NCBI GenBank assembly: GCA_035652355.1 | Contig: DASRDY010000285.1 | Span: forward strand, 24,300-88,299 | Source of the DNA: Blastocatellia bacterium | GTDB lineage: Bacteria; Acidobacteriota; Blastocatellia; DASRDY01 | Direction: 5' to 3' | Length of the DNA stretch: 64,000 nucleotides | Part shown: one piece after another, positions 3,858 to 57,537 of the stretch | How the letters are laid out: each line of letters opens with the position of its first letter | Numbering within the stretch: the stretch's first letter is position 1 | The notes under the pieces: generated by a model | What the model saw: the letters and a program-made list of their open reading frames with translations, nothing else | What the model was told of the DNA's origin: nothing | The model's database searches: none | Program-made: the position numbers and the translations under genes

Positions 3858-4261
3858 CCACCTGCATATCTCTCCAAAATATTTGCCGGGTTATGTAACG
3901 TTGTCGAGCCGATTTCACATAATTTTCCATAACTGCTTCGTTTCTTTGGCCTCAGCGTAATTGCACCTTGGCTCCAACATTTTACCACGCCTATAATGCC
4001 CCCAGCCTTGGATAGTCTCATCCGACTCCAAGCGCAGTACCAATAGAGTCGAGAGATTCTAATTCACGATTTCTGCCCTTATCAGCGCCGAAAATGTCGG
4101 CGCGCGCGAGCCCAATCACCCGTGGTTTGCGCGAAACAGATTTGTAAAGCGAGAGATAACTTCTACAGCTTTTTGCCCAGGCGTTCCGACGCATCTGCCC
4201 TTAACACAAGGCGAAAAGTTTGGACACAACTGGGCAACCCCACTCTAAAAGAGGGAGATAT

Positions 4262-7200: not shown

Positions 7201-8557
7201 AACGATCGGTGTTGTTCCTCCGGGATCGGGATCACCGATACCGCCGACAGGAACGGTAACATTCAAGGAAGGCGCAACAACGCTTGGTATCCGACCGGTC
7301 GGAGGACCAGGAGTAGCAACGTTCTCAACCTCGTTGCTGGGCGCCGGTCAGCACTCGATCACCGCGTTCTACAGTGGCGATGGTAACTTTAACCCGAGCA
7401 CGTCAAACACGCTGGTGCAGACTATGGGTCGTGCAGATATGTTCGTCAACCAGAGTACGGGACAGGATCCTGTGATGGTTGGTGACACGCTGCATTTCGA
7501 CATCGGCGTCGGCAGCGGCGGACCAAACGACGCATTCAACGTGGTTCTGCACCTCAACACACCTTCTGGCACATTCTTCGCGGGCGTCACACCTGACGTC
7601 GGATCGTGCACAGCGCCGCAAGTAGGTTTGACTGGAGCAATCACTTGCAGCCTGGGCAATTTCTCGCCGGGTGAAAACCATCACGTACATCTCGATCTGT
7701 TCGTCGATACAACATATTCGACGATCACCAACGTCGCCCACGTGACGACGGATTCGCTTGATCCTGACCTGACCAACAACACCATCTCTCGCACGGTGAA
7801 AGTCACGCTGATAAGCGCGCTGAGCATGACGAGTGTGCCAGTGAGCAGCAAGGCGACAACCGTGACGGTGATCGGCACGAACTTCCAGGGTGGCTCGACG
7901 GTTGAAGTGAATGGCGTCAGCCGACCTGCGACGATGGTTAGCAGCGGCAGACTGAGCGTTACGTTGACAGCATCGGATCTGTCGAAGACGGGCACACTGA
8001 CCCTGAGAGTAGTTGATCCCAGCGGCAGGAAGTCGAACGCCAAGACGTTGAACGTGGTATCGTCGAGCAACCGACGAACCCACGGAGAGCAGACTGGCGA
8101 AGAGACCGGCAACGCAGGTGGCAGCGGAACAGCTTCTCCTGCGACGCAGTCTACACAGCCGACGACCTCAGGTCAGGGCAAGACTGTAAGCCCGGCATCC
8201 AATAGCGGATCACCTGTTATTATCATGCCGACCACTGGCGTCACCGATAAGGACACTAAGGGTGAGAACGAAGCGCAGGCTTCAATTGACACTCTCAGCG
8301 TTACTGATGTTCAAGTCGGCAGCAAGCCGGTGACGGTCAAGATCACGGGCGCGAACTTCGATTCCGGATTACTGATACAGGTAAACGGAGAGAGCAGAGT
8401 CGCCAAGCTCATCGACGCCAACACGATGAGCATCACGCTCACCAGCGAAGATCTGTCAAAGACGGGGACATTGACAGTGAACGTAATCGACCAGCAGGGT
8501 CATGTCTCGAATGCCAAGGTCATCGATGTGACCGCGAGCAAGAAGGGCAAGAAGTAG
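4262..8557 (+). CDS. Large secreted multidomain protein: beta-helix + LamG-like + DUF11-like + Ig-like repeats + 2 IPT/TIG-like domains
   Basis: GAGGGAG ends 4 nt before ATG 4262; the listed ORF starts at TTG 4220. The signal/anchor is IIWLLLVGVAALAMTFGADLLSGSAKA. Domains in order: parallel beta-helix-type repeats; a ConA/LamG-like block (DFSIDAWIH, LYVDGVL); DUF11-like units (TYNLTVTNVG..DTLPAGM); four repeats NTxLxSSxNPSxxxQxVTFTATV; and two related ~80-aa C-terminal units (TVTVIGTNFQGG.. / VTVKITGANFDSG..) split by an S/T/G/Q-rich linker. Confidence 0.8.
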   Translation: MRTARVLFKPIIWLLLVGVAALAMTFGADLLSGSAKAAGFANSASFTLFSPPPPFVRCVTTGAIDPSCNDTHTTIQGAINAALPGDTILIAPGTYIEQITVNKNLTITTTGPGVVIQSPSTPLVPDAVGQLNIVTITGGVNVSISNLVVLGPGPGPCASINSGIFVSGNSVASITGLIIPEIHDNPFGGCQNGVGIQVGKQSVAQLGHAVITNTAVSNYQKAGIVVDGTGSDATITGDTIDGHGNTTLIAQNGIQISRGATAIVDNNLVQGNEFDGPGSGSDILNDVQSVGILLFNAGDGTVIENNNVTANDIGIYDLNLGAVNINNNHLTINRYGGIVQDQGTGNLNHNTVSGGLHSVFVASFSGATGDSIAILNGNTLSPGPGGTALDTGDADTGDAFVPFFQNVFCAAPPAGLVSWYPGDGNATDVAGGHDGTLVGGATFSPAGEVGQAFNFNGINAGVSVPDTASLNFGANSDFSIDAWIHIPTSANPTKTVVDIVDKRSFSPNPMGYSMFLLNGQLGVQLADGATVHNYVGPSTGELRDGQFHFVAATVTRASAGTFAVNLYVDGVLKDTITSNAILGDLTNTGALQIAFNPDPGVPAATKFAPGLFDEIEIFNRALSSADVASLFNPLIAGKCKVTDVGLTKTHTGTFTVGLTGTYNLTVTNVGTLRATSPITVSDTLPAGMSFLAVGAGSDPGWLCSGSTTVNCTNNTQLPVSASFPLNLDVTVTQGGARTNNAVVSMFGDSNSGNDNASDTLTVAKANTNTALASSVNPSVFGQPVTFTATVTATGITPVGNVEFFDGLTSLGVFPTSGGIASVTVSNLNVGSHSVTAQFTDGGDFNNSTASALNQVVNPANTNTSLVSSVNPSVFQQTVTFTATVTVVPPGGGTLSNTVTFRDGTTVIDVVPIGPGGVATTTRNSLSVGSHPITASYNGDGAHNGSLSNTVVQIVNKANTTLTLTSSANPGNPGGIVMFTATIGVVPPGSGSPIPPTGTVTFKEGATTLGIRPVGGPGVATFSTSLLGAGQHSITAFYSGDGNFNPSTSNTLVQTMGRADMFVNQSTGQDPVMVGDTLHFDIGVGSGGPNDAFNVVLHLNTPSGTFFAGVTPDVGSCTAPQVGLTGAITCSLGNFSPGENHHVHLDLFVDTTYSTITNVAHVTTDSLDPDLTNNTISRTVKVTLISALSMTSVPVSSKATTVTVIGTNFQGGSTVEVNGVSRPATMVSSGRLSVTLTASDLSKTGTLTLRVVDPSGRKSNAKTLNVVSSSNRRTHGEQTGEETGNAGGSGTASPATQSTQPTTSGQGKTVSPASNSGSPVIIMPTTGVTDKDTKGENEAQASIDTLSVTDVQVGSKPVTVKITGANFDSGLLIQVNGESRVAKLIDANTMSITLTSEDLSKTGTLTVNVIDQQGHVSNAKVIDVTASKKGKK

Positions 8558-17442: not shown

Positions 17443-20400
17443 TCAGGCAAACGCCTCGTTGACCAATTGGTGCTGTTCCATCTGGTGGATCGCGTAAACA
17501 CCGGTTGCAGGGCTCGCACTGCGTGCTCGACCAACGTATCTGACCGTGTAACCTTCGGGCAATACTTCATCGATACGCGGACGCACAAAAGTCCAGCCGC
17601 CCATATTCTTTGCCTCTTCCTGAACCCAGCGGAAATCCTTCGCTGAAGTAAAGGTCTTCAGGTAGCGCTCCATCATATTCTTCGGGAAAGGATAGAACTG
17701 TTCCAGGCGAACAATCGCGGTGCCGGTGTCTTTCAACTCCTGCCGTTTTGCATCAAGATCGTAATAAACTTTGCCGCTGCAGATCAGCACACGCTCAATT
17801 TGTGACGGATCCTTCACAATCGAGTCTTCGATGATCGGATTAAATCCGCCACTGGTGAACTCGTCGATTGGTGAAACCGCGTGCGGGTGACGCAGCAGAC
17901 TCTTTGGGGTCATCATTACCAAAGGCTTGCTGGGCGTCTGTTTGATTTGACGTCGCAGCACGTGAAAATATTGGGCCGGCGTCGAACAGTAAACGACCTG
18001 CATGTTGTCTTCAGCCGACAATTGCAGAAACCGTTCCAGTCGAGCGCTGGAATGTTCGGGGCCTTGACCTTCATAACCGTGCGGCAACAACATCACCAAT
18101 CTGCTCTTCTGATTCCATTTTTCTTCGCCTGCCGCGATGAACTGATCGACGATGACCTGAGCAACGTTCACGAAGTCGCCGAACTGCGCTTCCCACAAGG
18201 TCAATGTCTTTGGTGCGGCCACGCTGTAGCCATATTCGAAGCCGAGAACCCCTTGCTCCGACAATGAGCTGTCGAAAATCTCCAGACGCGCCTGGTCCGA
18301 TCTCATCTCTGCCAATGGAGTCCACGGCTGATCCGTCTGCGTATCGAACAGCACCATATGACGCTGACTGAACGTACCTCGACTGCTGTCCTCTCCCGTT
18401 AAGCGCACGGGAGTGCCTTCCAGCAACAGAGCGCCGAATGCGAGTGCTTCGGCAAACGCCCAATCTACAGGTACTTCGCCGGTCGCCATCTTTGCGCGAC
18501 GCGCGAGCAGCCCGACAACTTTTGGATTCAAATGAAAGCCTTTGGGAACGGTTGTCACAGCGCTGGCGATTGTTTGAAGCGTTCCCTGATCGACGTCGGT
18601 TTCAACCGTTTCGGTCTCGGCTTTCTCCTGAATGACGGGCGGGATCGTTATCGGTTGTCGACGGCTGACAATCTCCTTCGCGCCAAGATACGCGTTTTCA
18701 TAACGGCGATTGCGTTCGTCGTTTAATGCGTCGAACTCTTCCTGAGTATAAACGCCTTCTTTGACTAGTTTCTGTCCGTACAACATTCGCACACCCGGAT
18801 GCTCGCGGATGCGCTGGTACATGACGGGCTGTGTGTAGGACGGCTCGTCACCTTCATTGTGACCGTGACGCCGAAAACCAATCAGATCGATGACGACATC
18901 CTTATGGAACTTCATTCGATAGTCGAGCGCGATTCTCATCACATGATACGCGGCTTCCGGATCATCCGCGTTAACATGGAATATCGGGACCTGGATCATC
19001 TTCGCGACATCAGTGCTGTATAGCGATGAGCGAAGTTGCTCTGCCGGCGTCGTAAATCCAATCTGATTATTAACGATAATGTGAATAGTTCCACCGACAC
19101 GATAACCTTTCAGCTGAGAGAAATTCAGCGTCTCCGCCACTACTCCCTGACCGGAGAAGGCAGCATCGCCGTGAAGCAGGATAGGCATTGCCCTGTCATT
19201 GGCGCCATTCGCCCGACCGCCGAACAGCGTGTCTTGTTTAGCGCGAACTAATCCTTCCACTACGGGATCGACAAACTCGAGATGGCTGGGATTGAATGCA
19301 ACCGATAAAGCGATATTTCCGTATTCGGTCTCACGTTCGCCGCTGGCGCCCTGATGGTATTTTACGTCACCCTGATCTGATGGGAAATTTGGATGGACCG
19401 AGCCTTCAAAACTGGTGAAGATCCGCTCGCAGAAATGCCCAATCACATTGGCGATCACATTTAGCCGACCGCGATGCGACATTCCGATGGTTATGTCTTT
19501 GATCTCTCTTTCGGCGGCATGTTCGACCAGTTGATCCAGCAGCGCGACGGTCGTTTCCGTGCCTTCAACAGAGAAACGTTTTTGTCCAAGGTATTTTGTG
19601 CCCAGGAATTTTTCAAACAGCTCCGCCGAAATCAGCTTCCACAGGATACGTTTCCTGACCTCGACCGGTATTTCCGGTCGGGGTTCCTCAATGCGATCGC
19701 GCAGCCAGTCTTTTTCCGCAGGGCTCGAAATATTCCGATATTCAATTGCAATTGTGCCGCAGTATGCCTGTCGAAGTTTGGCTAGAATATCGCGCAGCGT
19801 CGCCTTTTCAACTCTGCCCAACCCGCCAGTGATGAATTCGCGATCGAGATCCCAGATCGTCAATCCGTAATACTCAATGTCCAGCTCGGGATGTTGTTGT
19901 ATGGCGGTGGCGCGGAGCGGATCGATATCGGCGATCATGTGACCGCGAACGCGGTAGGCATTTATCAATTCAATGACGCGAGCCTGTTTCTTAATCTCTT
20001 CCTGCCAGCGGTCGCCGCCAAGCAATGCAGGATTGCGATCAACAGCCCAGCGTAAAGGCTTGAACGGGATCTTCAGGTCGGCAAAGATCTCATCGTAGAA
20101 ATCATGTTTGCCCAGCAAATAGTCGCTAATCAGGGCAAGGAAAGCTCCGGATTCCGCACCTTGCACGATCCTGTGATCATAGGTGCTGGTAATCGTCATC
20201 ACCTTACTTATGCCAAGTTGCGAGAGCGCTTCGGGTGACATTGCCTGATATTCAGCCGGATATTCTATCGCGCCCGTTGCGATAATCAAACCCTGTCCCG
20301 ACATCAACCGAGGATTCGAAGCGTTAGTCCCGATTGTGCCAGGATTGGTCAGGCTTATAGTCGTTCCCTGGAAATCAGACACCTGAATCTTTCCATCGCG

Positions 20401-21102
20401 AGCGCGAAATACAATGTCGTCGTATGCGGCCAGCAATTGCGAAAAGGTGAGATGATTCGCGCCTTTGATATTCGGCACGAGTAACGTTCTGCTGCCGTCG
20501 CTTTTCGTCAGATCGATTGCTAATCCAAGGTTCACCTCAGATCGCTTTACTCGAAAAGCGCTCCCGTCGATAGCTTCGTAACCATCATTGAGCTGCGGGA
20601 ATTTCTGCAATGCCTTGATAATCGCCCATGCGATCAAATGAGTGTAAGAAGCCTTGCGTTTGCCATCGTGCTGTAATTGTTCATTGATCAAACGGCGATT
20701 TTCTTCCGCAACTTTCAATGGTATGTGTCGCTGCGAAGTCGCTGTCGGAACAGCAAGGCTCTGCTCCATATTCTCGGCGATCTTTAATGCGCCGCCTCGG
20801 ATGGGTACTTTGTCGCCCTCAAGCGAAATCTCTGCTTTTGGCGCAGGCCTGGTTTGAACCGGAGCAGGCGCTGACGCGACCGGTTCTGTTTTGGCCGCTC
20901 CTCCCCCGTTGGTCTCGCGCTTTGCTTTGCGGCTTGCTCCATCACTGTCGATAAGTCTTTCGAAATATTCGCGCCACTCTTCATCCACCAGCGCGGGATT
21001 TGCCTGAAATTGACTCAACAATTCTGCGACGTACGAGGCATTCGAGCCGAACTCAGCATCGATGATCTGAGTCAAGTCTGGTTCTTTCTGTCGTCTAGCC
21101 AC
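17443..21102 (-). CDS. odhA: Multifunctional 2-oxoglutarate dehydrogenase E1 with fused E2-type acyltransferase core (Kgd/OdhA type)
   Basis: The N-terminus FGSNASYVAELLSQFQANPALVDEEWREYF is SucA/Kgd-like. An internal 2-oxoacid dehydrogenase acyltransferase core carries TSTYDHRIVQGAESGAFL. The ThDP E1o region follows (MSHRGRLNVIANV, LLHGDAAFSGQGVV, RRHGHNEGDEPSYTQP). At 1219 aa it is far longer than the ~930 aa of plain SucA. Confidence 0.9.
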   Translation of the reverse strand: MARRQKEPDLTQIIDAEFGSNASYVAELLSQFQANPALVDEEWREYFERLIDSDGASRKAKRETNGGGAAKTEPVASAPAPVQTRPAPKAEISLEGDKVPIRGGALKIAENMEQSLAVPTATSQRHIPLKVAEENRRLINEQLQHDGKRKASYTHLIAWAIIKALQKFPQLNDGYEAIDGSAFRVKRSEVNLGLAIDLTKSDGSRTLLVPNIKGANHLTFSQLLAAYDDIVFRARDGKIQVSDFQGTTISLTNPGTIGTNASNPRLMSGQGLIIATGAIEYPAEYQAMSPEALSQLGISKVMTITSTYDHRIVQGAESGAFLALISDYLLGKHDFYDEIFADLKIPFKPLRWAVDRNPALLGGDRWQEEIKKQARVIELINAYRVRGHMIADIDPLRATAIQQHPELDIEYYGLTIWDLDREFITGGLGRVEKATLRDILAKLRQAYCGTIAIEYRNISSPAEKDWLRDRIEEPRPEIPVEVRKRILWKLISAELFEKFLGTKYLGQKRFSVEGTETTVALLDQLVEHAAEREIKDITIGMSHRGRLNVIANVIGHFCERIFTSFEGSVHPNFPSDQGDVKYHQGASGERETEYGNIALSVAFNPSHLEFVDPVVEGLVRAKQDTLFGGRANGANDRAMPILLHGDAAFSGQGVVAETLNFSQLKGYRVGGTIHIIVNNQIGFTTPAEQLRSSLYSTDVAKMIQVPIFHVNADDPEAAYHVMRIALDYRMKFHKDVVIDLIGFRRHGHNEGDEPSYTQPVMYQRIREHPGVRMLYGQKLVKEGVYTQEEFDALNDERNRRYENAYLGAKEIVSRRQPITIPPVIQEKAETETVETDVDQGTLQTIASAVTTVPKGFHLNPKVVGLLARRAKMATGEVPVDWAFAEALAFGALLLEGTPVRLTGEDSSRGTFSQRHMVLFDTQTDQPWTPLAEMRSDQARLEIFDSSLSEQGVLGFEYGYSVAAPKTLTLWEAQFGDFVNVAQVIVDQFIAAGEEKWNQKSRLVMLLPHGYEGQGPEHSSARLERFLQLSAEDNMQVVYCSTPAQYFHVLRRQIKQTPSKPLVMMTPKSLLRHPHAVSPIDEFTSGGFNPIIEDSIVKDPSQIERVLICSGKVYYDLDAKRQELKDTGTAIVRLEQFYPFPKNMMERYLKTFTSAKDFRWVQEEAKNMGGWTFVRPRIDEVLPEGYTVRYVGRARSASPATGVYAIHQMEQHQLVNEAFA

Positions 21103-47162: not shown

Positions 47163-50100
47163 ATGAAGACATTGATTCGTCGTTTTGGATTCACCAGATT
47201 TGTTGTTCTGACGTTATGCATTACGTTCGTGTTGGTGCTGGTCAAGCGTGAATCAATGGTCCTTGCAACCAGCCTGTTTCATGCGGCGACATCGGGTCGC
47301 ACCCAAACCAAGGACAATACCCAGGCTAAAGATCACACTCAGCTTAAAGTTCTGAGTTCTGTCAAAGTTCGGCCGACATCTATAGCGAAGCCGATGATCA
47401 AGCTTCAGGACAGTCGCGAGCTTTCATCTGACAGCGCGAGCGCTGTGGGTACATCGCATCAATCACTGGCGCTTAACTCGCCCATAGCAGGCTCGCTCAG
47501 ACCTGCCGATTCGATTTATAGTTCTCTGCGGCAAGCGGGCGCACGGCCGCTCGCCCTGGCGACTGCGGATATTAATCGGGACGGATTCCCCGATCTGATT
47601 ACAGGCTACGCGACTTCCGGGGGCGGAGTATTGATGTTGCGGTGGGCCAACGAGCAGGCCTATGCTCCCAGCGATCCGGCTGTCCTCGAAGGTATTAGAC
47701 AGCGCCGGTTTCCCAATCCATTCTTTGATGATGGGGCCACGATCGAACTGCCCGAAGCTCCTGATTTTGTATTAACCGGTGATTTCAACCATGACGGCAT
47801 AGTGGATGTTGTGGTTGCCGCCAAGGGCAGCAATGCGTTCTACCTCCTTGCGGGGGATGGACTGGGCGGATTTTCCGCTCCGACGCGCAAAGAATTGCCA
47901 GGCGCGGTAACGGCAATGACTGCGGGAGAGTTCGGCGCCCAGGATGGCTCGATGGACCTTGTTATAGGCGTCAATGGCTCCGGGGGATCTTCAGTACTGA
48001 TTTTCGATAAACACGAGAGCATTATCGATTCCACTCCTGAGGTTCGCGGTATATCAGGGTCGATCACGACATTGGCGCTGGGTTCACTTGATGGCGATCA
48101 ATTCAACGATCTTGCCATACTGGCGGGAGGCAGGCTGAGTGTTCTGCACGGCCAGGATCGCCTGGAAGGAGTGGATTCAGCAGCGACAGCCAGGCTTGAG
48201 AGCATTCCGTTATCGTTTGCTCCTAAATCATTTTCGCTGGGGAATTTCATCTGGGACCGTGAGGATAAGACTGAGATAGCCGTAATGTCGGCCGATAATC
48301 AGGTTCACATTCTTGCCCGCGGCAGTCTTGACGTTCGTCCCTTTACAGAAGAGGAAGTTCTGGCGAGTCGCAAGGACAAAGAAGCAAAAACCATTGCGAT
48401 GGCGAACGGTACTTATGTCGCGCCGGTTCTGAGCCAGTCGGCGGCAAACCAAAAATGGGCAATTGCGGAAGATGTTCCGGTTGAATCGACTGGAGTCGGC
48501 AATTCCGCGCCAATCCTGCTTACCACCAGAATGTCCTCCGTTCCTGCGGATGATCTGCTGGTCAAGGTTCCTGGCGGCACCCAAATTCAGGTTATGTACA
48601 AAGACACGAATCAGTCGGTAACTCGTAGCCGCACCAGCGGACGAGTGATGACTGGTAGAACTCCCGTGACGCTTGATTCAGCCAGCGAACCAGTCGCGGT
48701 ACTGCCGATGCGGGTCAATGTCGATGGTCGACCTGGTCTGGTTGTAATGAGCCAGGGTAATGTGACCGCTTCAGTTATAATGCCTGAAGGCGGCACCACC
48801 ATCACGGTCAACTCTGCCACGGACGTTATTCACAGTCCCGGATGCGCAACGACTGGCACAGGTACTTGTTCGCTCAGGGATGCGATTATCTTCTCGAACG
48901 CCGATACGGGCGCCGCAGATACGATTGTTTTCAGCGTTGGTATTAATCCAACTTTAACCATATCCAGTGGAGGCGCGGCGGAAAACAATGCGCAATCCGG
49001 AGATTTGGACATTAATCGCAGTGTTACCATAACCGGGAATGCTCCTACGACAGTCAGTACTACGTTCGATAATACCTGCGGCGACTGCAAGGTTTTCGGA
49101 ATCGATCAGACGGGTTTATTCCCTGGCGAGACTGTAAGTATGTCTGGTCTTACGATCCAGAATGGTGTTAATCACGGAAACGCAGGTTCGATTTGCGGTA
49201 CGTTCTTCGAAACGGGCGGCGGCATTGACGTCTTTTTCAAATCCTCTGGAAATTCCTTCACGTTGACGAATTCAACAGTAACAAACAATAGAACCGACCT
49301 TTGTGTGGCTGCCGGGCAGCATAGTCACGGCGGTGGCATCAACATCGATAGCAATAATCAGGCAATTGTAGGGGGCGCCAGCGCCGGTACGGCAACATTA
49401 ACTAATGTTACAGTCAGCAATAATATCGCGGGTCTTCAGGCTGGCGGAATTGGTCTTTTAGCGGACGTCCACAACGTGAACTTGACCAACGTTACAATAA
49501 CTGGCAACCAGAGCCAGCATTCAGATGGAGGCGGAGTATTCGTTTTACACAGCTTTGGTGGAACCGATACGTTTTCCAACGGATCGGTCTCGAGTAACAC
49601 GTCAGATGGGATAGGCGGTGGAGTTGAAATTGACGGTAATCAGGTAGTCAATTTTACAGGGACGACTTTTACCAGCAATACCGCCACTGGCACCGGCGCG
49701 AGTTCATTGGGCGGTGGGCTTGCCATTACCAACATTGGAGCGGCAGGCGTTACCGGAAGCACATCATTAACGAACTGCACCATAGATAGTAACCACGCCA
49801 ACAACGGCGCAAATTCAGGTGGTGGTGGTGTCTATTTCAACGGGGGTTACTCGTTGACTATTTCCGCCTGCGATATTAAAAACAACACCGGCGGTCAGGG
49901 TGGGGGTATTTTCAACGGTGGCAGCAACAGCTCGCCTGGCAGCACTGTAACGATAAATAATCTGACACTTATACACGGCAATTCAGCCGTCACCACTGGC
50001 GGTGGCAACGGAGATGGCGGAGGTATTGCAAACGGCCAAATCGGTGGAGCTGGGACTCAGTCTGGAACCATCGTAACCAAAACTCATATATTCGGAAACA

Positions 50101-53100
50101 CGGCGGCTAACAATGGTGGTGGTATCGCAGTTGGTCCTTTGACTAATGGAGCGACGTTTTCGATGAGCTTTAGCCGAATTGTTAATAACACTTCTAACGC
50201 TGCGACCAATCACGGAATCGAGGTTAATGGCACGAACGCAGTTGCGAGTGTGGCCGACAACTGGTGGGGTTGTTCGCAGAATCCGATCGGCAGTACTCAG
50301 TGCGACTCTGCGCACGCGACATCCGGAACGCTGACGGTTACCCCATTCCTGCAGATCACCAATTCGGCGGCGCAGAATCCGATTAAAGTTGGAGCAACCA
50401 CGACTCTGACTGCTACGGTTCAGGATTCGAACGGAATAAATCAGTCGTCAGCCAATTTGGACGTCTTTATTACCAGCAATGCAACCGCTGGAACCCCGTT
50501 GCCTGTAACCTGGAGCGCTGCGACAAACTCAATCACAATTGACGCGAACAGCTCGCCGCTTAAGAACGTCGGCGGAGTCGTTCAGGTGACGGCCACATAT
50601 AACGGGACAAATCCTGTGCATCATGATCCGGCGGCGGCCAAGGTCGATAACGATTTCACGACCGGATCGCATCCGAATGTGGTTTTGATGACTGTCCTCT
50701 CGCCGCCTAGCATTGCAAAAGCGTTCGGATCGCCAAATGTTGCGATAAACGGTGCACCAAACACGACGACTTTGACGTTTACGATAACAAACCCGAATGT
50801 GGGCGACGGGTTGAATGGACTTGCGTTTACAGATACCTTCGCGCCTGGCGCGGCAAATATCAAAGTCGCATCTCCGCCCAATGCATCGACCACTTGCGGC
50901 GGCGGAACGGTGACGGCGGTTGCAGGCTCAGGCTCCGTTTCATTGAGCGGTGGCACGATCGGCATAAATACTACTTGTACCGTTACCGTCACTGTTCAAG
51001 GCCAAGCTCCTGACGGTACAGCTAATAACACCAGCGGGAATGTTACGGCCACCGATGCGGGTGGTTTGACTGGCAACACTGCCAGTGCCAGCACGCTTGT
51101 GGCCGATGCGCCAACTATCGCAAAACTATTCGGCGCCGCTACAATACCGCTGAACGGCACCACGTCGTTGACATTCACTCTTCAGAATACGAACGCGAAT
51201 ACAGCGCTGAGCGGAGTCGCGTTTAGCGACACTCTGCCCGCTGGATTGACAGTCGCTACCCCAGGAAACCCGAGCACCAACTGCCCAGGCGGAACTGTTA
51301 CCGCTACGAATGGGTCATCGAGCATAACCCTCTCGGGTGCATCGCTCGCAACCGGGGCAACTTGCACTGCAACGGTTACCGTTCAGGGAACAACAGCCGG
51401 AGTGAAGAACAACACGGCATCCGCTTCATCTACGACTACGGGTGCTCTTACTAATTCGACAGGTACGGTTCCAATAACAGTTGTGGCGCCGCCGACGATC
51501 AGCAAGGCATTCGGTGCGCCCAGCATACCATTGAACGGCACGACAACGATGACCTTCACGATTACCAATCCGAATACCACGGTTGGTTTGAGTGGACTCG
51601 CATTTAGCGACACATTCCCATCAGGTCTGCAGGTGGCAGCGACACCGGGCGTGGTCAATAACTGCAACGGGACCTTCACTCCGGCAGCAGGTGATACTAC
51701 GGTCAGCCTCTCAGGAGGGACGGTCGGTACCAATACCTCCTGTACTATCACGGTTAATGTAACCGGAACAACAGCAGGTGCGATGGCGAATATAACCGGA
51801 GCGATTTCGTCGACCGAAGGCGGAACGGGCACAACCAGCAACACGGCAACGCTCAATGTGTTTGCGCCTCCTACAATTTCCAAGGCGTTTGGTGTCTCGA
51901 CGATAGCGGTCAATGGTACGACATCTCTCACCTTCACAATTACAAACCCGGCCTCGAATCCAGGGGCATTGACAGGTATTGGTTTTACCGATTCTCTGCC
52001 TGCGGGACTGGTGGTCGCGACGCCTAATGGGTTGTCAAACACTTGTAATGGTACAGTGACGGCGGTCGCCGGATCAGGTTCGATAACCCTGAATAACAAC
52101 GGCAGCATCACCACTCCTGGTACTACCTGTACGATCCAGGTAAATGTTACCGGCACCACTTCCGGGGTGAAAAACAACACAACCGGTGCTATATCATCGA
52201 CCAATGGCGGAACCGGCGCAACCAGTAACACTGCCACTTTGACGGTCGCATCGCCGCCGACTATTAGCAAGGCTTTCGGCGCGGCGACGATTCCGCTAAA
52301 CGGCACAACGTCAATGACGTTCACGATCAGCAATCCAAACTCGATTGGACTAACCGGTCTTGCGGTTTCGGATACTCTTCCGGCAGGTTTGGTTGTTGCA
52401 ACTCCGAACAACCTGAGCAATTCATGTAATGGCAGCGTGACGGCTACATCGGGTACAAATTCGGTGAGCCTGTCTGGCGGCACGATAGCGGCCAGTCCTG
52501 CTACCTGTACAGTGTCTGTAGATGTTCAGGGCACAACGGCCGGTGTGAAGAGCAACACTACTACCGCAATCACTTCTACTGAAAGCGGACCCGGCACAAC
52601 CAGCAACACCGCGACAGTAACAGTGGTAGCACCGCCTACAATCAGCAAGGCGTTCGGCGCTGCCAGTGTGGCGGTCAATGGCAGCACGACGTTGACATTC
52701 ACGATAAGTAATCCTAACGCTACAGTCAGCCTGACGGGCCTGGCATTTAATGACAGCTTCCCGTCGGGTCTTCAGGTAGCATCGACACCTGGCGTCGTCA
52801 ACAACTGCGGTGGGACCTTTACTGCGAATGCTAATGCGACATCTGTGAGCCTGTCGGGTGGCACGGTTGGTACTGGCGGGTCGTCGACTTGTACAATAAC
52901 AGTCAATGTTACCGGTACATCGGCAGGCGCGAAGGCCAATACTACTGGCGCAGTCTCCTCGACTGAGGGCGGAACCGGCGCAGTCAGCAACACCGCGACA
53001 CTAAACGTGTTTGCTCCGCCGACGATCAGCAAAGCATTTGGTACTAGTCAGGTCCCGCTCGGTGGAACTACGACCCTGACCTTTACGATCACTAATCCGG

Positions 53101-56100
53101 CGGCTAATCCCGGTGGGCTAACAGGAATCGGCTTCACGGATACGCTGCCAGCGGGGCTTGTTGTCGGAACGCCGAACAATCTCTCGAACACCTGCAGCGG
53201 TACCGTAACCGCGACTGCCGGGTCGAGTTCGATATCCCTTAATAACAACGGCAGCATCGCTACGCCGGGGAATACCTGTACGATTCAGGTAGATGTGACG
53301 GGAACTACCTCGGGAGTGAAAAACAATACCACAGCCGCGATTACATCGACCAATGGCGGCACAGGCGCAACCAGCAATACCGCGACGCTGACGGTGGCGT
53401 CCCCGCCGGTCATCTCGAAGTCGTTTACTCCTTCGACGGTAGGGGTAAATGGTTTCTCGAGCCTGTCATTTACCATTCAAAATAACAACAATGCGGGTTC
53501 GCTGACTGGTGTAGGCTTCACCGACAATCTGCCTGCAAACCTGGTTGTGTTCACTCCGAATGGATTATCGGGAAGCTGCGGAGGCGGCACAATCAGCGCA
53601 GTGGCGGGATCATCGACGATCAGCCTTACGAATGCGACTCTGCCTGCAAGCAGCAGTTGTACTTTCTCTGTTGCTGTAACGCCGGAAACGGTCGGGACAT
53701 TCAACAACACAACAACTAATGTTACATCCAACGAGGCAGGCAACGGCAATCAGGCCAGCGCCACGCTTACCTCGCTGAATCCTCCTAGCATTGCCAAGTT
53801 CTTTGGCGCTCCGCGCATCGATGTGGGAACTTCCACTTCTCTGACTTTCCAGATCGACAACTTCAACGGCGCTGATTCTCTTACGGGAGTGCACTTCCTG
53901 GATACTTTGCCTTCAGGTTTGAGGGTAGCTACTCCCAATGGCGTAAGCGGCAACTGCGGTGGTGTGGTTGTTGCGAATGCGGGATCCAGCACGATCAGCC
54001 TGACGAACGGTAGTCTTGCGCCCGGGGCTAATTGCAGCTTCAGCGTCAATGTCACGGCAATCAGCGGAGGCACTCAGGTCAACGTCACTGGCAACGTCAT
54101 TTCCACCAATGGCGGCTCGGGCAACACAGCCACTGCTCAGATCGATACCTGCAGTTATGTGGTCTCACCAGTTTCGCTGTCATACCCAATATCGGGTGGC
54201 ACGGGCACGGTGACAGTGACGCCCAACATCGGGACCTGTTCATGGACAGCAGTCAGCAATGACAGCTTTGTCCACATTACCAGTGGAGCCGGACCAACAA
54301 CTGGCAACGGCAGTGTGCAGTTCACTGTCGACAACTCAGGCGGCACACCAAGAACCGGAACGATGACCATTGCCACAAACACCGTGGTGGTGGATCAGAC
54401 CAATCCGACTGCGATCAATCTCAACAGCTTCACCGCCACCAAGATCGGATCGGCAACGCTGCTGAAGTGGCAGACCGGTATGGAAGTTCACAACCTTGGT
54501 TTCAACATCTACCGGGATGACAATGGTCAGAAGGTGCAGATCAATCCTTCTCTGATTGCCGGATCAGCACTGAGAGTGGGAATGAATACCAACGTGCAGT
54601 CAGGCTTCGGCTACTCCTGGGTTGATCATTCGGGCGGCGGCAGCTACTACCTTGAAGACGTCGATCTCAACGGCACCAGCACCCTGCACGGACCGTTCAG
54701 TGCCACATCGGGCACTGCAGATTTGACCGCCAATTCGATGATGCTCTCAGAGGTCAACAGCGCCGCGGCACAGAGCTATTCACTGCAGCGAGGCTATCCT
54801 GCAGGAGTGGAGATCAGCTCAGGCAGTGCGTCCTCTGCTGATACGACTGCAAGAACAGCGGGAAGAAGCCCGAACCGACCCGCGACTGTCAGCAACGCAC
54901 TGAAGAAGCAGTGGTCGATAGCTTCGCAATCGGCAGTGAAGATCGGAGTGAACAAGACGGGCTGGTATCAAGTCAATGCTGTTGATCTGTTCACGGCGGG
55001 ACTCGACACCGCCGCGAAACCCGGCAACCTGCAGATGTTTGTGGGCGGAGCAGAGGTACCGATCAAGGTCAATGCCGCCAGTTCGGATCATCTGTCAGTG
55101 GGAGACACAATCGAGTTCTACGGAGCTGCGCTTGATACTACTACCGCCAATACCCGGGTCTACTGGCTGACATCAGGAACTTCAGCAGGCAGACGAGTGG
55201 GCAGTGTCACTGCCTCGGCAAGCTCAGGTAATGGCGGATCATTCGCTTACACCGTGGAGCGGCAGGACAAGAGCATCTACTTCTCCGGTCTGCTCAATGG
55301 AGAGGCCGAGAACTGGTTTGGCGCCCTGGTTAACACCACTCCCGCAACACAGAACCTGACCATCAACCATCTGGATCAGAACTCCGCTGATCCTGCTGTG
55401 ATAGAGGTAGGGCTGCAGGGAGCGACAGGATCGCTGCACAACGTGACGGTGATGCTGAACGGAACAGCGATTCAGAACATCAACTTCAACGGACAGGCGC
55501 ATCAGGTGGTACAGATAGAAGTACCGCAAAGTGGGCTGGTTGAAGGCAATAACACGGTAAGCCTTGCTGCTGCGGCAGGCGGAGACATCTCGCTGGTGGA
55601 TTATGTGAAGATTACCTACGCACACAGCTATCAGGCAGAGAACAACAGCCTGTTCACCAACGTACCGGCCAATCAGGCGGTGAGCATCACAGGCTTCACA
55701 TCGAATCAGATCAGAGCCATCGATGTCAGCAATCCACTGCAACCACTGGAACTGCAGGGAGCGATAGATACATCGGATGCGAATATCTCCACGATCAGCC
55801 TGGTTACCGGCAAACAGAGCAACCTGATTGCGTTCACGCCCGATCAGATGCTCAGTCCGGTGTCTATCACCGCAAACAATCCTTCATCTCTCAATCAAGG
55901 AGGAGCGGGAGCCAACCTGGTGATCATCGGCTACAGAGACTTCCTGCAGAGCGTACAGCCGCTGGTGGCGCTAAAACAGAGCCAGGGCTACGCGGTAGCA
56001 GTAGTGGATGTAGAGGACATCTACGATGAGTTCAGCTATGGAGTGCATTCGCCACAGGCGGTGAAGGACTTCCTCAGCTGGAGCTATCTGCACTGGCAGA

Positions 56101-56924
56101 AGCAGCCACAGTACGTGATGCTGGCGGGAGACGCTTCATACGATCCGAAGGGTTATCTGGGACTGGGCAATCAGGACTTCGTGCCGACGAAGCTGATAGA
56201 CACTGCCAATATGGAGACAGCCAGTGACGGCTGGCTGGTGGATTTCAACAATGATGGCACAGAGCAGATGGCCATAGGCCGACTACCGGTACGAACAGCG
56301 GCGGATGCCACGGCAATGGTCAACAAGATCGTTGCCTACGAGCAGACAGGCACAGCGCAGACGATGGTGCTGGTGTCAGACCTTAACGATGGGCTGGACT
56401 TTGCGGCAAGCAATGCTCAGATCGGAGCAATGGCGCCGTCGCAGATGTCTGTAGTCAATATAGTGAGAGGACAGACAACAACAGATGCCAGGACGGAATT
56501 GCTGGATCAATTGTCGCAGGGTGGCCGAATAGTGAACTATGCGGGACACGGGTCGGTGAACCTGTGGCGAGGGAATCTGCTGACGAACGATGATATGTCT
56601 GTGCTAACCAACAGCAAGACATCGGCGCTGGTAGTGACAATGACCTGTCTGAACGCCTATTCACTGGATTCGAGACTGCCAAGCCTTGGAGAAGCGTTGC
56701 TGAACGTAAAACAAGGCGGAGCAGTATCGGTGTGGGCATCGACAGCAATGACCGATATGAGCAACCAGAGCGGAATGAACCAGGCGTTGTTCCGGCAGTT
56801 GCTGGGAAACAGTCAGATCACCATAGGAGACGCGATCAGAACAGCGAAGAAGACAGAGCCGAATAATGATGTAAGAAGGAGCTGGATGCTGTTCGGCGAT
56901 CCGACAATGAAGATAAAGCAGTAG
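47163..56924 (+). CDS. Giant (3253 aa) secreted/anchored protein: FG-GAP propeller + beta-helix + 9 DUF11-like repeats + BACON-like domain + C-terminal peptidase C25 (gingipain-like) domain
   Basis: AAGGAG RBS. The N-terminal anchor is FVVLTLCITFVLVLV. FG-GAP/VCBS-type blades are present (DINRDGFPDLITG, GDFNHDGIVDVVVAA, LDGDQFNDLAIL). The hallmark CSLRDAIIFSNADTGAADTIVF is followed by G-rich beta-helix turns. Nine ~127-aa repeats follow, then CSYVVSP..GGTGTVTVTPNIGTCSWTAVSND (BACON-like). The C25-like end has VIIGYRDFLQSVQPLVALKQSQGYAVAVVDVEDIYDEFSYG, YAGHGSVNLW (His) and LVVTMTCLNAY (Cys). Confidence 0.85.
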   Translation: MKTLIRRFGFTRFVVLTLCITFVLVLVKRESMVLATSLFHAATSGRTQTKDNTQAKDHTQLKVLSSVKVRPTSIAKPMIKLQDSRELSSDSASAVGTSHQSLALNSPIAGSLRPADSIYSSLRQAGARPLALATADINRDGFPDLITGYATSGGGVLMLRWANEQAYAPSDPAVLEGIRQRRFPNPFFDDGATIELPEAPDFVLTGDFNHDGIVDVVVAAKGSNAFYLLAGDGLGGFSAPTRKELPGAVTAMTAGEFGAQDGSMDLVIGVNGSGGSSVLIFDKHESIIDSTPEVRGISGSITTLALGSLDGDQFNDLAILAGGRLSVLHGQDRLEGVDSAATARLESIPLSFAPKSFSLGNFIWDREDKTEIAVMSADNQVHILARGSLDVRPFTEEEVLASRKDKEAKTIAMANGTYVAPVLSQSAANQKWAIAEDVPVESTGVGNSAPILLTTRMSSVPADDLLVKVPGGTQIQVMYKDTNQSVTRSRTSGRVMTGRTPVTLDSASEPVAVLPMRVNVDGRPGLVVMSQGNVTASVIMPEGGTTITVNSATDVIHSPGCATTGTGTCSLRDAIIFSNADTGAADTIVFSVGINPTLTISSGGAAENNAQSGDLDINRSVTITGNAPTTVSTTFDNTCGDCKVFGIDQTGLFPGETVSMSGLTIQNGVNHGNAGSICGTFFETGGGIDVFFKSSGNSFTLTNSTVTNNRTDLCVAAGQHSHGGGINIDSNNQAIVGGASAGTATLTNVTVSNNIAGLQAGGIGLLADVHNVNLTNVTITGNQSQHSDGGGVFVLHSFGGTDTFSNGSVSSNTSDGIGGGVEIDGNQVVNFTGTTFTSNTATGTGASSLGGGLAITNIGAAGVTGSTSLTNCTIDSNHANNGANSGGGGVYFNGGYSLTISACDIKNNTGGQGGGIFNGGSNSSPGSTVTINNLTLIHGNSAVTTGGGNGDGGGIANGQIGGAGTQSGTIVTKTHIFGNTAANNGGGIAVGPLTNGATFSMSFSRIVNNTSNAATNHGIEVNGTNAVASVADNWWGCSQNPIGSTQCDSAHATSGTLTVTPFLQITNSAAQNPIKVGATTTLTATVQDSNGINQSSANLDVFITSNATAGTPLPVTWSAATNSITIDANSSPLKNVGGVVQVTATYNGTNPVHHDPAAAKVDNDFTTGSHPNVVLMTVLSPPSIAKAFGSPNVAINGAPNTTTLTFTITNPNVGDGLNGLAFTDTFAPGAANIKVASPPNASTTCGGGTVTAVAGSGSVSLSGGTIGINTTCTVTVTVQGQAPDGTANNTSGNVTATDAGGLTGNTASASTLVADAPTIAKLFGAATIPLNGTTSLTFTLQNTNANTALSGVAFSDTLPAGLTVATPGNPSTNCPGGTVTATNGSSSITLSGASLATGATCTATVTVQGTTAGVKNNTASASSTTTGALTNSTGTVPITVVAPPTISKAFGAPSIPLNGTTTMTFTITNPNTTVGLSGLAFSDTFPSGLQVAATPGVVNNCNGTFTPAAGDTTVSLSGGTVGTNTSCTITVNVTGTTAGAMANITGAISSTEGGTGTTSNTATLNVFAPPTISKAFGVSTIAVNGTTSLTFTITNPASNPGALTGIGFTDSLPAGLVVATPNGLSNTCNGTVTAVAGSGSITLNNNGSITTPGTTCTIQVNVTGTTSGVKNNTTGAISSTNGGTGATSNTATLTVASPPTISKAFGAATIPLNGTTSMTFTISNPNSIGLTGLAVSDTLPAGLVVATPNNLSNSCNGSVTATSGTNSVSLSGGTIAASPATCTVSVDVQGTTAGVKSNTTTAITSTESGPGTTSNTATVTVVAPPTISKAFGAASVAVNGSTTLTFTISNPNATVSLTGLAFNDSFPSGLQVASTPGVVNNCGGTFTANANATSVSLSGGTVGTGGSSTCTITVNVTGTSAGAKANTTGAVSSTEGGTGAVSNTATLNVFAPPTISKAFGTSQVPLGGTTTLTFTITNPAANPGGLTGIGFTDTLPAGLVVGTPNNLSNTCSGTVTATAGSSSISLNNNGSIATPGNTCTIQVDVTGTTSGVKNNTTAAITSTNGGTGATSNTATLTVASPPVISKSFTPSTVGVNGFSSLSFTIQNNNNAGSLTGVGFTDNLPANLVVFTPNGLSGSCGGGTISAVAGSSTISLTNATLPASSSCTFSVAVTPETVGTFNNTTTNVTSNEAGNGNQASATLTSLNPPSIAKFFGAPRIDVGTSTSLTFQIDNFNGADSLTGVHFLDTLPSGLRVATPNGVSGNCGGVVVANAGSSTISLTNGSLAPGANCSFSVNVTAISGGTQVNVTGNVISTNGGSGNTATAQIDTCSYVVSPVSLSYPISGGTGTVTVTPNIGTCSWTAVSNDSFVHITSGAGPTTGNGSVQFTVDNSGGTPRTGTMTIATNTVVVDQTNPTAINLNSFTATKIGSATLLKWQTGMEVHNLGFNIYRDDNGQKVQINPSLIAGSALRVGMNTNVQSGFGYSWVDHSGGGSYYLEDVDLNGTSTLHGPFSATSGTADLTANSMMLSEVNSAAAQSYSLQRGYPAGVEISSGSASSADTTARTAGRSPNRPATVSNALKKQWSIASQSAVKIGVNKTGWYQVNAVDLFTAGLDTAAKPGNLQMFVGGAEVPIKVNAASSDHLSVGDTIEFYGAALDTTTANTRVYWLTSGTSAGRRVGSVTASASSGNGGSFAYTVERQDKSIYFSGLLNGEAENWFGALVNTTPATQNLTINHLDQNSADPAVIEVGLQGATGSLHNVTVMLNGTAIQNINFNGQAHQVVQIEVPQSGLVEGNNTVSLAAAAGGDISLVDYVKITYAHSYQAENNSLFTNVPANQAVSITGFTSNQIRAIDVSNPLQPLELQGAIDTSDANISTISLVTGKQSNLIAFTPDQMLSPVSITANNPSSLNQGGAGANLVIIGYRDFLQSVQPLVALKQSQGYAVAVVDVEDIYDEFSYGVHSPQAVKDFLSWSYLHWQKQPQYVMLAGDASYDPKGYLGLGNQDFVPTKLIDTANMETASDGWLVDFNNDGTEQMAIGRLPVRTAADATAMVNKIVAYEQTGTAQTMVLVSDLNDGLDFAASNAQIGAMAPSQMSVVNIVRGQTTTDARTELLDQLSQGGRIVNYAGHGSVNLWRGNLLTNDDMSVLTNSKTSALVVTMTCLNAYSLDSRLPSLGEALLNVKQGGAVSVWASTAMTDMSNQSGMNQALFRQLLGNSQITIGDAIRTAKKTEPNNDVRRSWMLFGDPTMKIKQ
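50703..54147 (+). repeat. Nine in-frame tandem coding repeats of ~381 nt (~127 aa) inside the giant gene
   Basis: Each unit reads PPxIxKxFG..(I/V)..NG.T.LTFTIxNPN...LTGxxFxDxLPxGLxVATPxxxxxxCxGTVTAxxGxxxIxLxxGxIxxxxxCTxxVxVxGTxxGxxxNxTxxxxSxxGGxGxxSNTATLxV, with one conserved Cys pair. Units 3/6 and 4/7 are much more alike than neighbouring units. Confidence 0.85.
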
Positions 56925-57060: not shown

Positions 57061-57537
57061 ATGAGCAAGAAAGAGACGAAGCCCTGCGCCAGGAGCAAGG
57101 GACTGGTGGTACAAAAGCTGGAAGGAGAAGTGCTGGTCTATGACACAGAGAAGCAGCAGGCGCACTGCCTCAATGGAACGGCCGCACTGATCTGGGAGCA
57201 GTGTGATGGAACGAGAACAGTGAAGGAACTTGCCGGTCTGCTTCGAGGAGATGTAACAGAGCGAGAGAGGGAAGAGCTGGTCTGGATCGCGCTTGAAGAG
57301 CTAAACAGATCAAATCTGTTGGAAGAGCCGCTGGCACGACCATCAGCCATAAGCGGACTCAGCCGAAGACAGATGCTGAAGGCAGCCGGGGTTGCGGCCA
57401 TGATCGCGGTTCCTGTCGTGAGCACAATAGTAGCACCAAAAGCAGCACAGGCATCGACTTGTCTTCCGACCAGCGCCGGTTGCACGATCAGCGCTCAATG
57501 TTGCAGCGGTATCTGCTCTGGCGGCGCGTGTGCGTAA
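57061..57537 (+). CDS. PqqD-like (RRE-type) domain fused to a Tat-motif hydrophobic segment and a 27-aa six-cysteine C-terminal peptide
   Basis: GGAG lies 5 nt before the ATG. The PqqD pattern is LVVQKLEGEVLVYDTEKQQAHCLNGTAALIWEQCDGTRTVKELAGLL..LEELNRSNLL. Then come SRRQMLKAAGVAAMIAVPVVSTIVAPKAAQA and STCLPTSAGCTISAQCCSGICSGGACA. Confidence 0.7.
   Translation: MSKKETKPCARSKGLVVQKLEGEVLVYDTEKQQAHCLNGTAALIWEQCDGTRTVKELAGLLRGDVTEREREELVWIALEELNRSNLLEEPLARPSAISGLSRRQMLKAAGVAAMIAVPVVSTIVAPKAAQASTCLPTSAGCTISAQCCSGICSGGACA

Follow-up and report, generated by a model that had tools for sequence, protein, structure and literature searches.

Introduction

What is understood of C25 cysteine peptidases comes almost wholly from Porphyromonas, namely from the gingipains RgpB and Kgp (MEROPS C25; PDB 1CVR, 4IEF, 4RBM) and the sortase PorU of P. 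gingivalis (PDB 6ZA2). In the gingipains, the catalytic domain is followed by an IgSF domain and a C-terminal domain (CTD) of the secretion system of type IX (T9SS), and the adhesin-type modules of RgpA and Kgp are likewise C-terminal. Both the T9SS and PorU have been described as restricted to Bacteroidota/FCB (PMC5445135, PMC12398890). The gene analyzed here encodes a protein of 3253 amino acids (aa) ending in a C25 domain. It lies in a window of 64,000 nucleotides (nt) from a Blastocatellia bacterium (assembly GCA_035652355.1, contig DASRDY010000285.1, positions 24,300-88,299 of the forward strand). The window is the whole stretch of DNA that was analyzed, and all coordinates without a locus name refer to it.

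The product is identical to NCBI protein HZS48002.1, which is labelled 'C25 family cysteine peptidase' and comes from a Blastocatellia metagenome-assembled genome (MAG); the same record set also contains the neighbouring genes. Public annotation already has the C25 call, and neither the giant size nor the mix of domains is out of the ordinary for surface proteins of soil bacteria. What is new is a peptide partner, previously unremarked, together with a reversed C25 architecture that lacks the CTD and is massively expanded in another phylum. The same catalytic machinery is found here in a soil phylum without a known T9SS, as the constant module of thousands of proteins. The pairing of module and peptide is the part worth following. 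No paper describing either the C25-module family or the six-Cys peptide family was found in the literature searched, and a search for PqqD cysteine-rich precursors in Acidobacteria returned nothing relevant.

The C-terminal C25 module and its family

The features on which the main finding rests are as follows.

47163-56924, + strand: whole gene, an uninterrupted open reading frame (ORF) of 3253 aa
54402-56921, + strand: conserved 840-aa family module, aa 2414-3253, bounded by homology search
55920-56912, + strand: Peptidase_C25 catalytic domain (Pfam PF01364), aa 2920-3250
56379-56381, + strand: codon of Asp3073, aligned with RgpB Glu152, the third catalytic residue
56547-56549, + strand: codon of catalytic His3129 (NYAGHGS), aligned with RgpB His211
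56646-56648, + strand: codon of catalytic Cys3162 (VTMTCLNAY), aligned with RgpB Cys244
57061-57537, + strand: partner gene of 158 aa, 136 nt downstream of the C25 gene, with a PqqD/RRE domain, a twin-arginine translocation (Tat)-like signal (SRRQMLKAAGVAAMIAVPVV...APKAAQAS) and a C-terminal six-Cys core

A first-pass annotation, made from the sequence alone, had proposed a C25-type peptidase at the extreme C-terminus and had named candidate His and Cys residues. The assignment was borne out by a strong Pfam match, with PF01364 covering aa 2920-3250 at E = 1e-75 (255.8 bits; cut-off 23), and the domain has the caspase-like (clan CD) alpha/beta fold of family C25. The candidate dyad aligned with that of RgpB, whose chain numbering in the alignment reproduces the literature numbering, and with that of PorU. 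Among 375 family sequences, the His3129 and Cys3162 positions were each kept in 373 of 373, while the Asp3073 position was occupied by Asp in 372 of 375. This invariance across the family argues for active enzymes under selection, and the 840-aa module is accordingly described here as catalytically competent by prediction. The protein ends 3 residues past the C25 domain, and the predicted lack of a T9SS CTD held true, as no CTD model matched in a Pfam/NCBIfam scan of the whole protein.

The C-terminal region, previously given as about 860 aa, proved to be real, with its exact extent corrected to a sharply bounded module of 840 aa. When the query was extended upstream, homology began sharply at aa 2413-2416 in most relatives. 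The module opens with a beta-sandwich carrying the motif W-x-T-G-x-E-x-x-N-L-G-F-N-x-Y-R (aa 2414-2515), followed by a disordered linker (aa 2533-2572) and by PorU-like and CBM35/36-like beta domains (aa ~2578-2905), after which the catalytic domain begins. A segment scan also gave a sub-threshold BPA_C/CBM-like match inside this C-terminal region.

Family searches were performed with the last 724 aa as query, then with HMMER against 1.84 billion cluster representatives, and then in species-representative genomes. The first search returned 846 proteins. The best 120 of these showed 42-62% identity at 70-100% query coverage (at least 92% for most full-length matches) and were mostly labelled Blastocatellia, and 99 of the 120 stopped exactly at the query end. 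The exhaustive HMMER search, in which counts are of clusters at 50% identity, yielded 18,390 matches at E ≤ 1e-3, 11,033 at E ≤ 1e-10 and 5,305 at E ≤ 1e-30. Of the 150 best HMMER matches, with lengths of 724 to 3119 aa, most contained virtually the whole module of 840 aa, and its position was nearly always C-terminal. Relatives were encoded by at least 558 stretches of species-representative genomes, nearly all of them in MAGs of Blastocatellia or Pyrinomonadaceae. Copies were frequent within a genome and often in tandem (top 80 loci), with at least five on one 7.9-Mb contig and at least eight in one MAG. Seven contigs labelled 'uncultured Clostridia bacterium' (L004, L019, L032, L033, L041, L053, L073) carried C25 genes and neighbours of the Blastocatellia type; these labels are probably a taxonomic mislabel of MAGs.

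A variable passenger in front of a constant C-terminal module is the rule of this family. The shortest complete members, of about 875-900 aa, consist of a signal peptide and the 840-aa module. The passenger ranges from 0 to about 2900 aa and the gene products from about 834 to 3804 aa, with three relatives exceeding the protein in the window. A C-terminal C25 domain without a CTD is common to a family of thousands of Blastocatellia proteins and is not special to this gene. The passengers of other members included LTD, Ig, BNR-like, cohesin, laminin-G, CBM-like, beta-helix, S24/S26 peptidase and M12B metallopeptidase domains.

The 3804-aa member (L058:1172-12586, + strand) carries a passenger with a reprolysin-type M12B metallopeptidase, BACON and Calx-beta domains, and therefore two peptidases in one chain. 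A gene of the PqqD-six-Cys type lies directly upstream of it.

Comparison with PorU and the gingipains

By sequence, PorU was the best solved relative of the module (6ZA2, E = 9.4e-13), with RgpB (E = 1.1e-8) and then Kgp coming next. The NCBIfam PorU model NF033707 aligned aa 2587-3252 with profile positions 3-733 of 1095, scoring 253.3 bits against a cut-off of 420, and Foldseek aligned 807 columns of the module to PorU. Over the whole module, the closest characterized relative is thus PorU and not only the gingipains, a point that the first-pass annotation had overlooked. A closer structural kinship to PorU than to the gingipains was upheld only in part, by alignment length and sequence scores, and failed for superposition of the catalytic domain.

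The shared portion with PorU comprises the N-terminal beta region and the C25 domain (~670 aa) and includes the conserved His and Cys motifs (NYAGHG; T-C). In contrast to PorU, the window protein lacks the post-catalytic domains and the CTD (profile positions 734-1095 unmatched), falls below the PorU family cut-off, carries a fused passenger of 2400 aa, and belongs to a family with multiple copies per genome in Blastocatellia hosts with no known T9SS. None of the T9SS attachment complex proteins PorV, PorZ and PorQ was seen among the window ORFs scanned. A literature search for T9SS in Acidobacteriota, by title and abstract, returned nothing on the subject.

Identity to the gingipains was 17-20%. 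Their IgSF domain and T9SS CTD are not found after the catalytic domain of the window protein, and its adhesin-type modules are N-terminal, unlike those of RgpA and Kgp. The ~330 aa directly before the C25 domain, where gingipains have an inhibitory N-terminal prodomain, consist of the PorU-like and CBM-like beta domains. The S1 residue Asp163 of RgpB, which confers Arg specificity, corresponds to Asn in a region where the alignment is weak. In summary of the layout, the catalytic core is gingipain-like, the multi-domain arrangement preceding it is PorU-like, and the post-catalytic domains and CTD of both are missing.

The partner gene for a six-Cys peptide

The gene that follows the C25 gene encodes a PqqD/RRE domain (E = 5e-8), a Tat-like signal of the pattern S-R-R-x-x-x-R/K, hydrophobic stretch, then A-P-x-A-x-Q-A-A, and a short Cys-rich C-terminus. 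The six-Cys core was recognized in 107 of 120 further homologues, with the Cys residues invariant. In 79 of the 107 the core was of 25 aa with the spacing C-x6-C-x5-CC-x3-C-x4-C, and in 105 a single residue followed the last Cys. Non-Cys residues of the core are also strongly conserved (TTSAQCCSG). We read the six-Cys framework as putatively knottin-like, judging from the cysteine pattern. At 90% identity, the peptide family forms at least 2479 clusters in Blastocatellia. Databases give its members no other names than 'PqqD family protein' or 'PqqD family peptide modification chaperone'. Fusion of an RRE to its own putative precursor is unusual.

Conservation of the pairing was followed in both directions, by clustering the neighbours of 78 C25 loci and, in a reverse test, from 80 metagenome loci found with the peptide. 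One clearly recurrent partner emerged among the neighbours of the 78 loci, namely relatives of the 57061-57537 gene, present in 13. In the reverse test, a C25 module was located within 10 kb in 19 of the 30 peptide loci of at least 9 kb (63%). All pairs of C25 and peptide genes were on the same strand (51/51). The peptide gene started 7-160 nt after the C25 stop in 18 pairs, and at about 1.04-1.13 kb after the C25 gene in nine; the latter spacing fits the order C25, HprK-like, PqqD of several genome loci. In the unbiased genome loci, the peptide gene was directly downstream of 9 of 80 modules (~11%). Peptide-linked modules clustered together, as the nearest neighbour was also linked in 13 of 16 cases against a background of 17%. 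The closest relative (locus L079, 76-77% module identity) had the same gene order as the window, the pairing looks one-to-one, and C25 and peptide genes interleave in tandem arrays. The earlier suggestion of a tie between the protease and the neighbouring Cys-rich peptide thus gains support from conserved co-directional pairing, as an association between genes.

Three other kinds of neighbour recurred: an HprK-related kinase A-like protein whose match to TIGR04352 (E = 2e-18) was below cut-off, NTP_transf_5 with E = 7e-28, and a signal peptidase of S26-like type. Cassettes beside C25 genes at L043:12691-14087, L005:7680-9260, L007:12568-15387 and similar positions contained the HprK-related kinase A-like gene, the PqqD-six-Cys gene and NTP_transf_5, sometimes with the S26-like signal peptidase, and one family member (P0041) is an S24/S26-C25 fusion. 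The content of these cassettes suggests a tailored-peptide pathway. Tailoring sets of the lasso-peptide type ('HPr-rel-A' cassette) combine PqqD/RRE, an HPr-kinase-like kinase and a nucleotidyltransferase. The related loci resemble lasso-type tailoring sets in having the PqqD domain, the HprK-like kinase and NTP_transf_5 beside C25 genes. They differ from them in several ways. The kinase match is below cut-off, neither a lasso cyclase nor a B2 protease was seen, and the putative precursor carries the RRE as a fused domain. The window contains none of these tailoring enzymes.

In locus L001, a 73-aa Cys_rich_CWC peptide is encoded at 6112-6333 (+ strand), some 3.7 kb upstream of the gene for P0004, a C25 relative with 56% identity. 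This peptide belongs to a Cys-rich family different from the PqqD-six-Cys family.

Proposed function and alternative explanations

We propose, with a probability of about 0.5, that the gene product is an exported, passenger-targeted cysteine endopeptidase functionally coupled to the six-Cys peptide. The analysis shows the architecture and fold, the conservation of the catalytic residues, family membership and the conserved gene order; from these we infer export, peptidase activity, the role of the passenger and the peptide as substrate. The protein would be exported as a disulfide-rich chain that starts with a Sec signal or anchor and continues into a long passenger. The passenger is composed of putative binding and spacer modules, namely a propeller, a beta-helix, some ten Ig-like domains and one BACON-like domain, and the enzyme module sits at the far end. 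This module would work outside the cytoplasm, with Cys3162 as the likely nucleophile and His3129 as the general base, oriented by Asp3073, while the passenger would set the location of the protease or its binding target. The gene belongs to the subgroup of the family that is paired, in an operon-like manner, with the gene of a predicted exported PqqD-Tat-six-Cys peptide, and the partner peptide is the prime candidate substrate. A cut near the conserved A-x-Q/E-A-A-N/T | C junction could free the 25-aa core from a membrane-tethered RRE/Tat-like leader.

Several points weigh against this proposal. In the unbiased sample, only about 11% of family members are followed directly by the peptide gene, and the general role of the family therefore cannot depend on the peptide. 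The A-x-A motif of the peptide could be open to ordinary signal peptidase, in which case a dedicated protease would be unnecessary. A protease of 1000-3800 aa is atypical as a peptide-maturation enzyme, and a protein of 3253 aa would have to cross the outer membrane. The residue at the S1 position of RgpB is Asn, in a low-confidence region of the alignment, and literature searches for C25 peptidases in Acidobacteria and for gingipain in Blastocatellia found nothing.

A general secreted protease, nutritional or adhesive and functionally unrelated to the neighbouring peptide gene, is a doubtful alternative that nonetheless has to be considered. Isolates of Blastocatellia favour proteinaceous substrates, and a large, multi-copy family with variable passengers, about 89% of whose members lack a peptide gene directly downstream, would suit such a role. 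It is opposed by the co-direction of all 51 pairs with very short gaps, by the presence of the C25 gene in 63% of long peptide loci, and by the clustering of linked modules by sequence similarity in the nearest-neighbour test. The resemblance to PorU raises another explanation, namely a sortase or transpeptidase that would cleave the C-terminal signal off a cargo and join the freshly exposed C-terminus to a surface glycan or to some other amine, working either in trans or, as a 'self-sorting' protein, in cis on the passenger it carries. The best PDB match by sequence, the alignment to NCBIfam PorU models over aa 2587-3252 (profile positions 3-733) and the 807 Foldseek columns all point in this direction, and a constant C-terminal module behind variable, sometimes enzymatic passengers resembles a cargo with its sorting device. 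We nevertheless regard this explanation as unlikely, given a score far under the PorU cut-off (253 vs 420 bits), the absence of the C-terminal third of PorU including the CTD, the many family members that consist of the module only, and the description of the T9SS as specific to Bacteroidota/FCB (PMC5445135, PMC12398890), with no T9SS literature for Acidobacteriota seen at the level of titles and abstracts.

The six-Cys peptide might instead be a cognate inhibitor or latency factor of the protease and not its substrate. Protease inhibitors are numerous among eukaryotic knottins, the genes seem to pair one-to-one and interleave in tandem arrays, and conserved non-Cys core residues (TTSAQCCSG) are expected of a peptide that binds a conserved active site. 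We know of no knottin inhibitor of clan CD peptidases, however, most family members lack the peptide gene, and the associated genes for an HprK-like kinase and NTP_transf_5 speak for a peptide product that is modified, not for a simple inhibitor, which makes this interpretation improbable as well. More speculative, and distinctly improbable, is that Blastocatellia have made a clan CD enzyme of the PorU/gingipain type into a portable C-terminal cassette for processing or ligating, as opposed to a plain protease. Such a cassette would mature, and possibly ligate or display, a knottin-like peptide tailored by kinase and nucleotidyltransferase and provided with its own RRE and Tat-like leader, or would cut and attach its own passenger in cis. 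If true, it would represent a 'sortase-in-cis' that works independently of a T9SS, or else the bacterial equivalent of the pairing of asparaginyl endopeptidase (AEP) and cyclotide in plants. The comparison with AEP/cyclotide pairs (legumain, e.g. OaAEP1) is a lead only, as these enzymes belong to family C13 and the window enzyme to C25. With a single residue after the last Cys in 105 of 107 cores, the six-Cys core has no C-terminal propeptide for transpeptidative cyclisation.

Should the coupled endopeptidase and peptide indeed be enzyme and substrate, they would represent a new route of peptide maturation and a tractable entry to one of the most expanded protein families of Blastocatellia, an abundant soil lineage. 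Should the protein be merely a targeted protease, an 840-aa module with defined boundaries and catalytic residues would still be a useful annotation.

Passenger modules and integrity of the gene

The region preceding the module comprises the following features.

47163-47243, + strand: Sec signal or signal-anchor, aa 1-27 (19-residue Kyte-Doolittle window, maximum 2.35 at aa 9-27)
47544-48812, + strand: FG-GAP/VCBS beta-propeller, aa ~128-550 (Pfam, AlphaFold2 model, Foldseek)
48843-50267, + strand: CSLREA-type motif CSLRDAI and Gly/Asn/Thr-rich right-handed beta-helix, aa 561-~1035 (sub-threshold hidden Markov models, motif conservation, AlphaFold2 model)
50340-50672, + strand: Ig-like domain resembling Big_3_5, aa ~1060-1170 (E = 5e-4, sub-threshold; PF16640 in relatives)
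50703-54146, + strand: nine DUF7933 (DUF11-related) repeats of ~126-135 aa each, aa 1181-2328 (Pfam)
54147-54401, + strand: BACON-like Cys-bracketed beta module, aa 2329-2413 (BACON_2 below cut-off; homologous domains in relatives)

The modular exported architecture proposed in the first-pass annotation holds at the level of sequence, and most of its parts were recovered; the further description as a surface-anchored adhesin that might process itself is putative. The N-terminal anchor corresponds to aa 9-27, the sole hydrophobic segment of the protein by Kyte-Doolittle analysis, which may act as a Sec signal or signal-anchor and is followed by a low-complexity spacer up to about aa 125. The FG-GAP propeller was confirmed by Pfam matches above threshold (FG-GAP_3, 59.2 bits, three stretches; FG-GAP, 43 bits, two stretches) and by an AlphaFold2 model of aa 90-1180 (predicted local distance difference test, pLDDT, 80.3; predicted template modelling score, pTM, 0.86). 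The top Foldseek matches of this model in the PDB were beta-propellers (among them ITFG2/KICSTOR, BBS1/BBS9 and CRTAC1), aligned over 420-475 columns, in keeping with a closed propeller fold.

Support for the CSLREA motif and beta-helix, as for the BACON-like module, is weaker; it comes from motif conservation and the model and not from profile scores. L, R and A of C-S-L-R-x-A were invariant in 27 homologues, and beyond the propeller the model showed regular short-strand triplets, as expected of a beta-helix. CSLREA_Nterm (TIGR04214) scored 16.1 bits, short of its cut-off of 25, and Pfam Beta_helix in a segment scan gave E = 9e-4, also below cut-off, with PF13229 present in relatives. The Big_3_5-like Ig domain had been absent from the earlier list of modules. 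The nine repeats of ~127 aa with Cys pairs are nine DUF7933 domains (PF25564, 789.9 bits, E = 2.7e-242, nine stretches above threshold), each with one Cys pair; DUF11 was also among the Pfam matches. The BACON-like module is represented by related domains in four large relatives, of 42-53% identity and directly before the module in three of the four, while its own scores stayed sub-threshold (20.4 bits for BACON_2, E = 5e-4, and 15.4 bits, vs 25; PF13004/PF19190). True BACON matches were present in the passenger of L058.

The protein has 32 Cys residues, and 15 local pairs account for 30 of them: the beta-helix region holds five pairs, each DUF7933 repeat has one, and the BACON-like module has one. 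The others are Cys19 in the signal segment and the catalytic Cys3162. This pattern, together with the single N-terminal hydrophobic segment, fits and suggests an oxidising, extracytoplasmic location.

Homologues of aa 90-1180 were found in Acidobacteriota at 44% identity and up to 97% coverage (e.g. P0272, P0273, P0287). None of these has a C25 domain, their ends being HYR, PKD, DUF11, Big_3_5 or DUF7933 modules. Acidobacterial surface proteins with FG-GAP, CSLREA and Ig repeats thus have the same modules as the passenger (FG-GAP, Beta_helix, Big_3_5, DUF11, DUF7933) and differ in terminating with HYR, PKD or Ig modules without C25. Some large relatives within the C25 family have an N-terminal propeller or a BACON-like domain in common with the window protein. 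The DUF7933 array was found in none of 20 large relatives, and the exact combination of modules is therefore unusual.

Since the contig derives from a MAG and the gene is long and repetitive, an assembly chimera or a non-catalytic pseudo-enzyme had to be considered, and the first-pass annotation had named repeat-driven misassembly as a possible fault. Tandem Repeats Finder detected no tandem DNA repeat in 47-57 kb, since the nucleotide sequences of the DUF7933 units have diverged too far. Identity among the nine units is 37-84% for protein and 46-71% for DNA, with a longest exact common word of 18 nt, which excludes repeat-driven misassembly. The junction of the BACON-like domain and the module was found again on independent contigs, and a 345-aa fragment assembled from read set SRR5581483 shares a 90% cluster with the 3253-aa protein. 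As the catalytic residues are also invariant across relatives, both explanations are effectively refuted.

DUF7933 units 3/6 (78% aa identity) and 4/7 (84%) are far closer to each other than to other units, which points to recent duplication with a three-unit period within the array. A Shine-Dalgarno sequence GGAG lies 7 nt upstream of the ATG of the gene. Scanning 44.5-58.8 kb for promoters and terminators was uninformative, as the counts did not exceed those expected from shuffling.

Other genes in the window and related loci

BLAST of each protein module against all window ORFs revealed no paralogue in the window. A second large surface-type protein, of 1445 aa, is encoded at 4220-8557 (+ strand) and contains Beta_helix, Big_3_5 three times and DUF11 twice, but no C25 module; it has the same module vocabulary as the passenger, yet no BLAST-detectable similarity to it.

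Upstream of the C25 gene (45195-46821 and 43762-44073, + strand), three tandem paralogous phage-tail-collar proteins (174, 164 and 177 aa) are encoded, preceded by a DUF6916 protein and two GNAT acetyltransferases. Collar and DUF6916-like genes flank the C25/PqqD pair in L132, and a collar gene precedes the PqqD gene in L125. As conserved partners the collar proteins were rejected, since just 2 of 157 other loci have them together with a C25 or peptide gene, and on the same count the earlier idea that the protease acts on them found no support.

A small conserved ORF (94-156 aa, no Pfam/NCBIfam match) is located directly upstream of C25 genes in L004, L019 and L061, with homologues in L038, L071 and L078. 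Four of these six loci (L019, L038, L071, L078) also contain a regulator of about 650 aa with a CadC/HilA-type winged helix and TPR. A tblastn search of the window with the HprK-like, NTP_transf_5, S26, small-ORF and regulator neighbours found none of them. Elsewhere in the window (17443-21102, - strand), a 2-oxoglutarate dehydrogenase E1 of 1218 aa carries an N-terminal 2-oxoacid_dh acyltransferase (E2-type) catalytic domain, a fused layout reminiscent of actinobacterial OdhA/Kgd.

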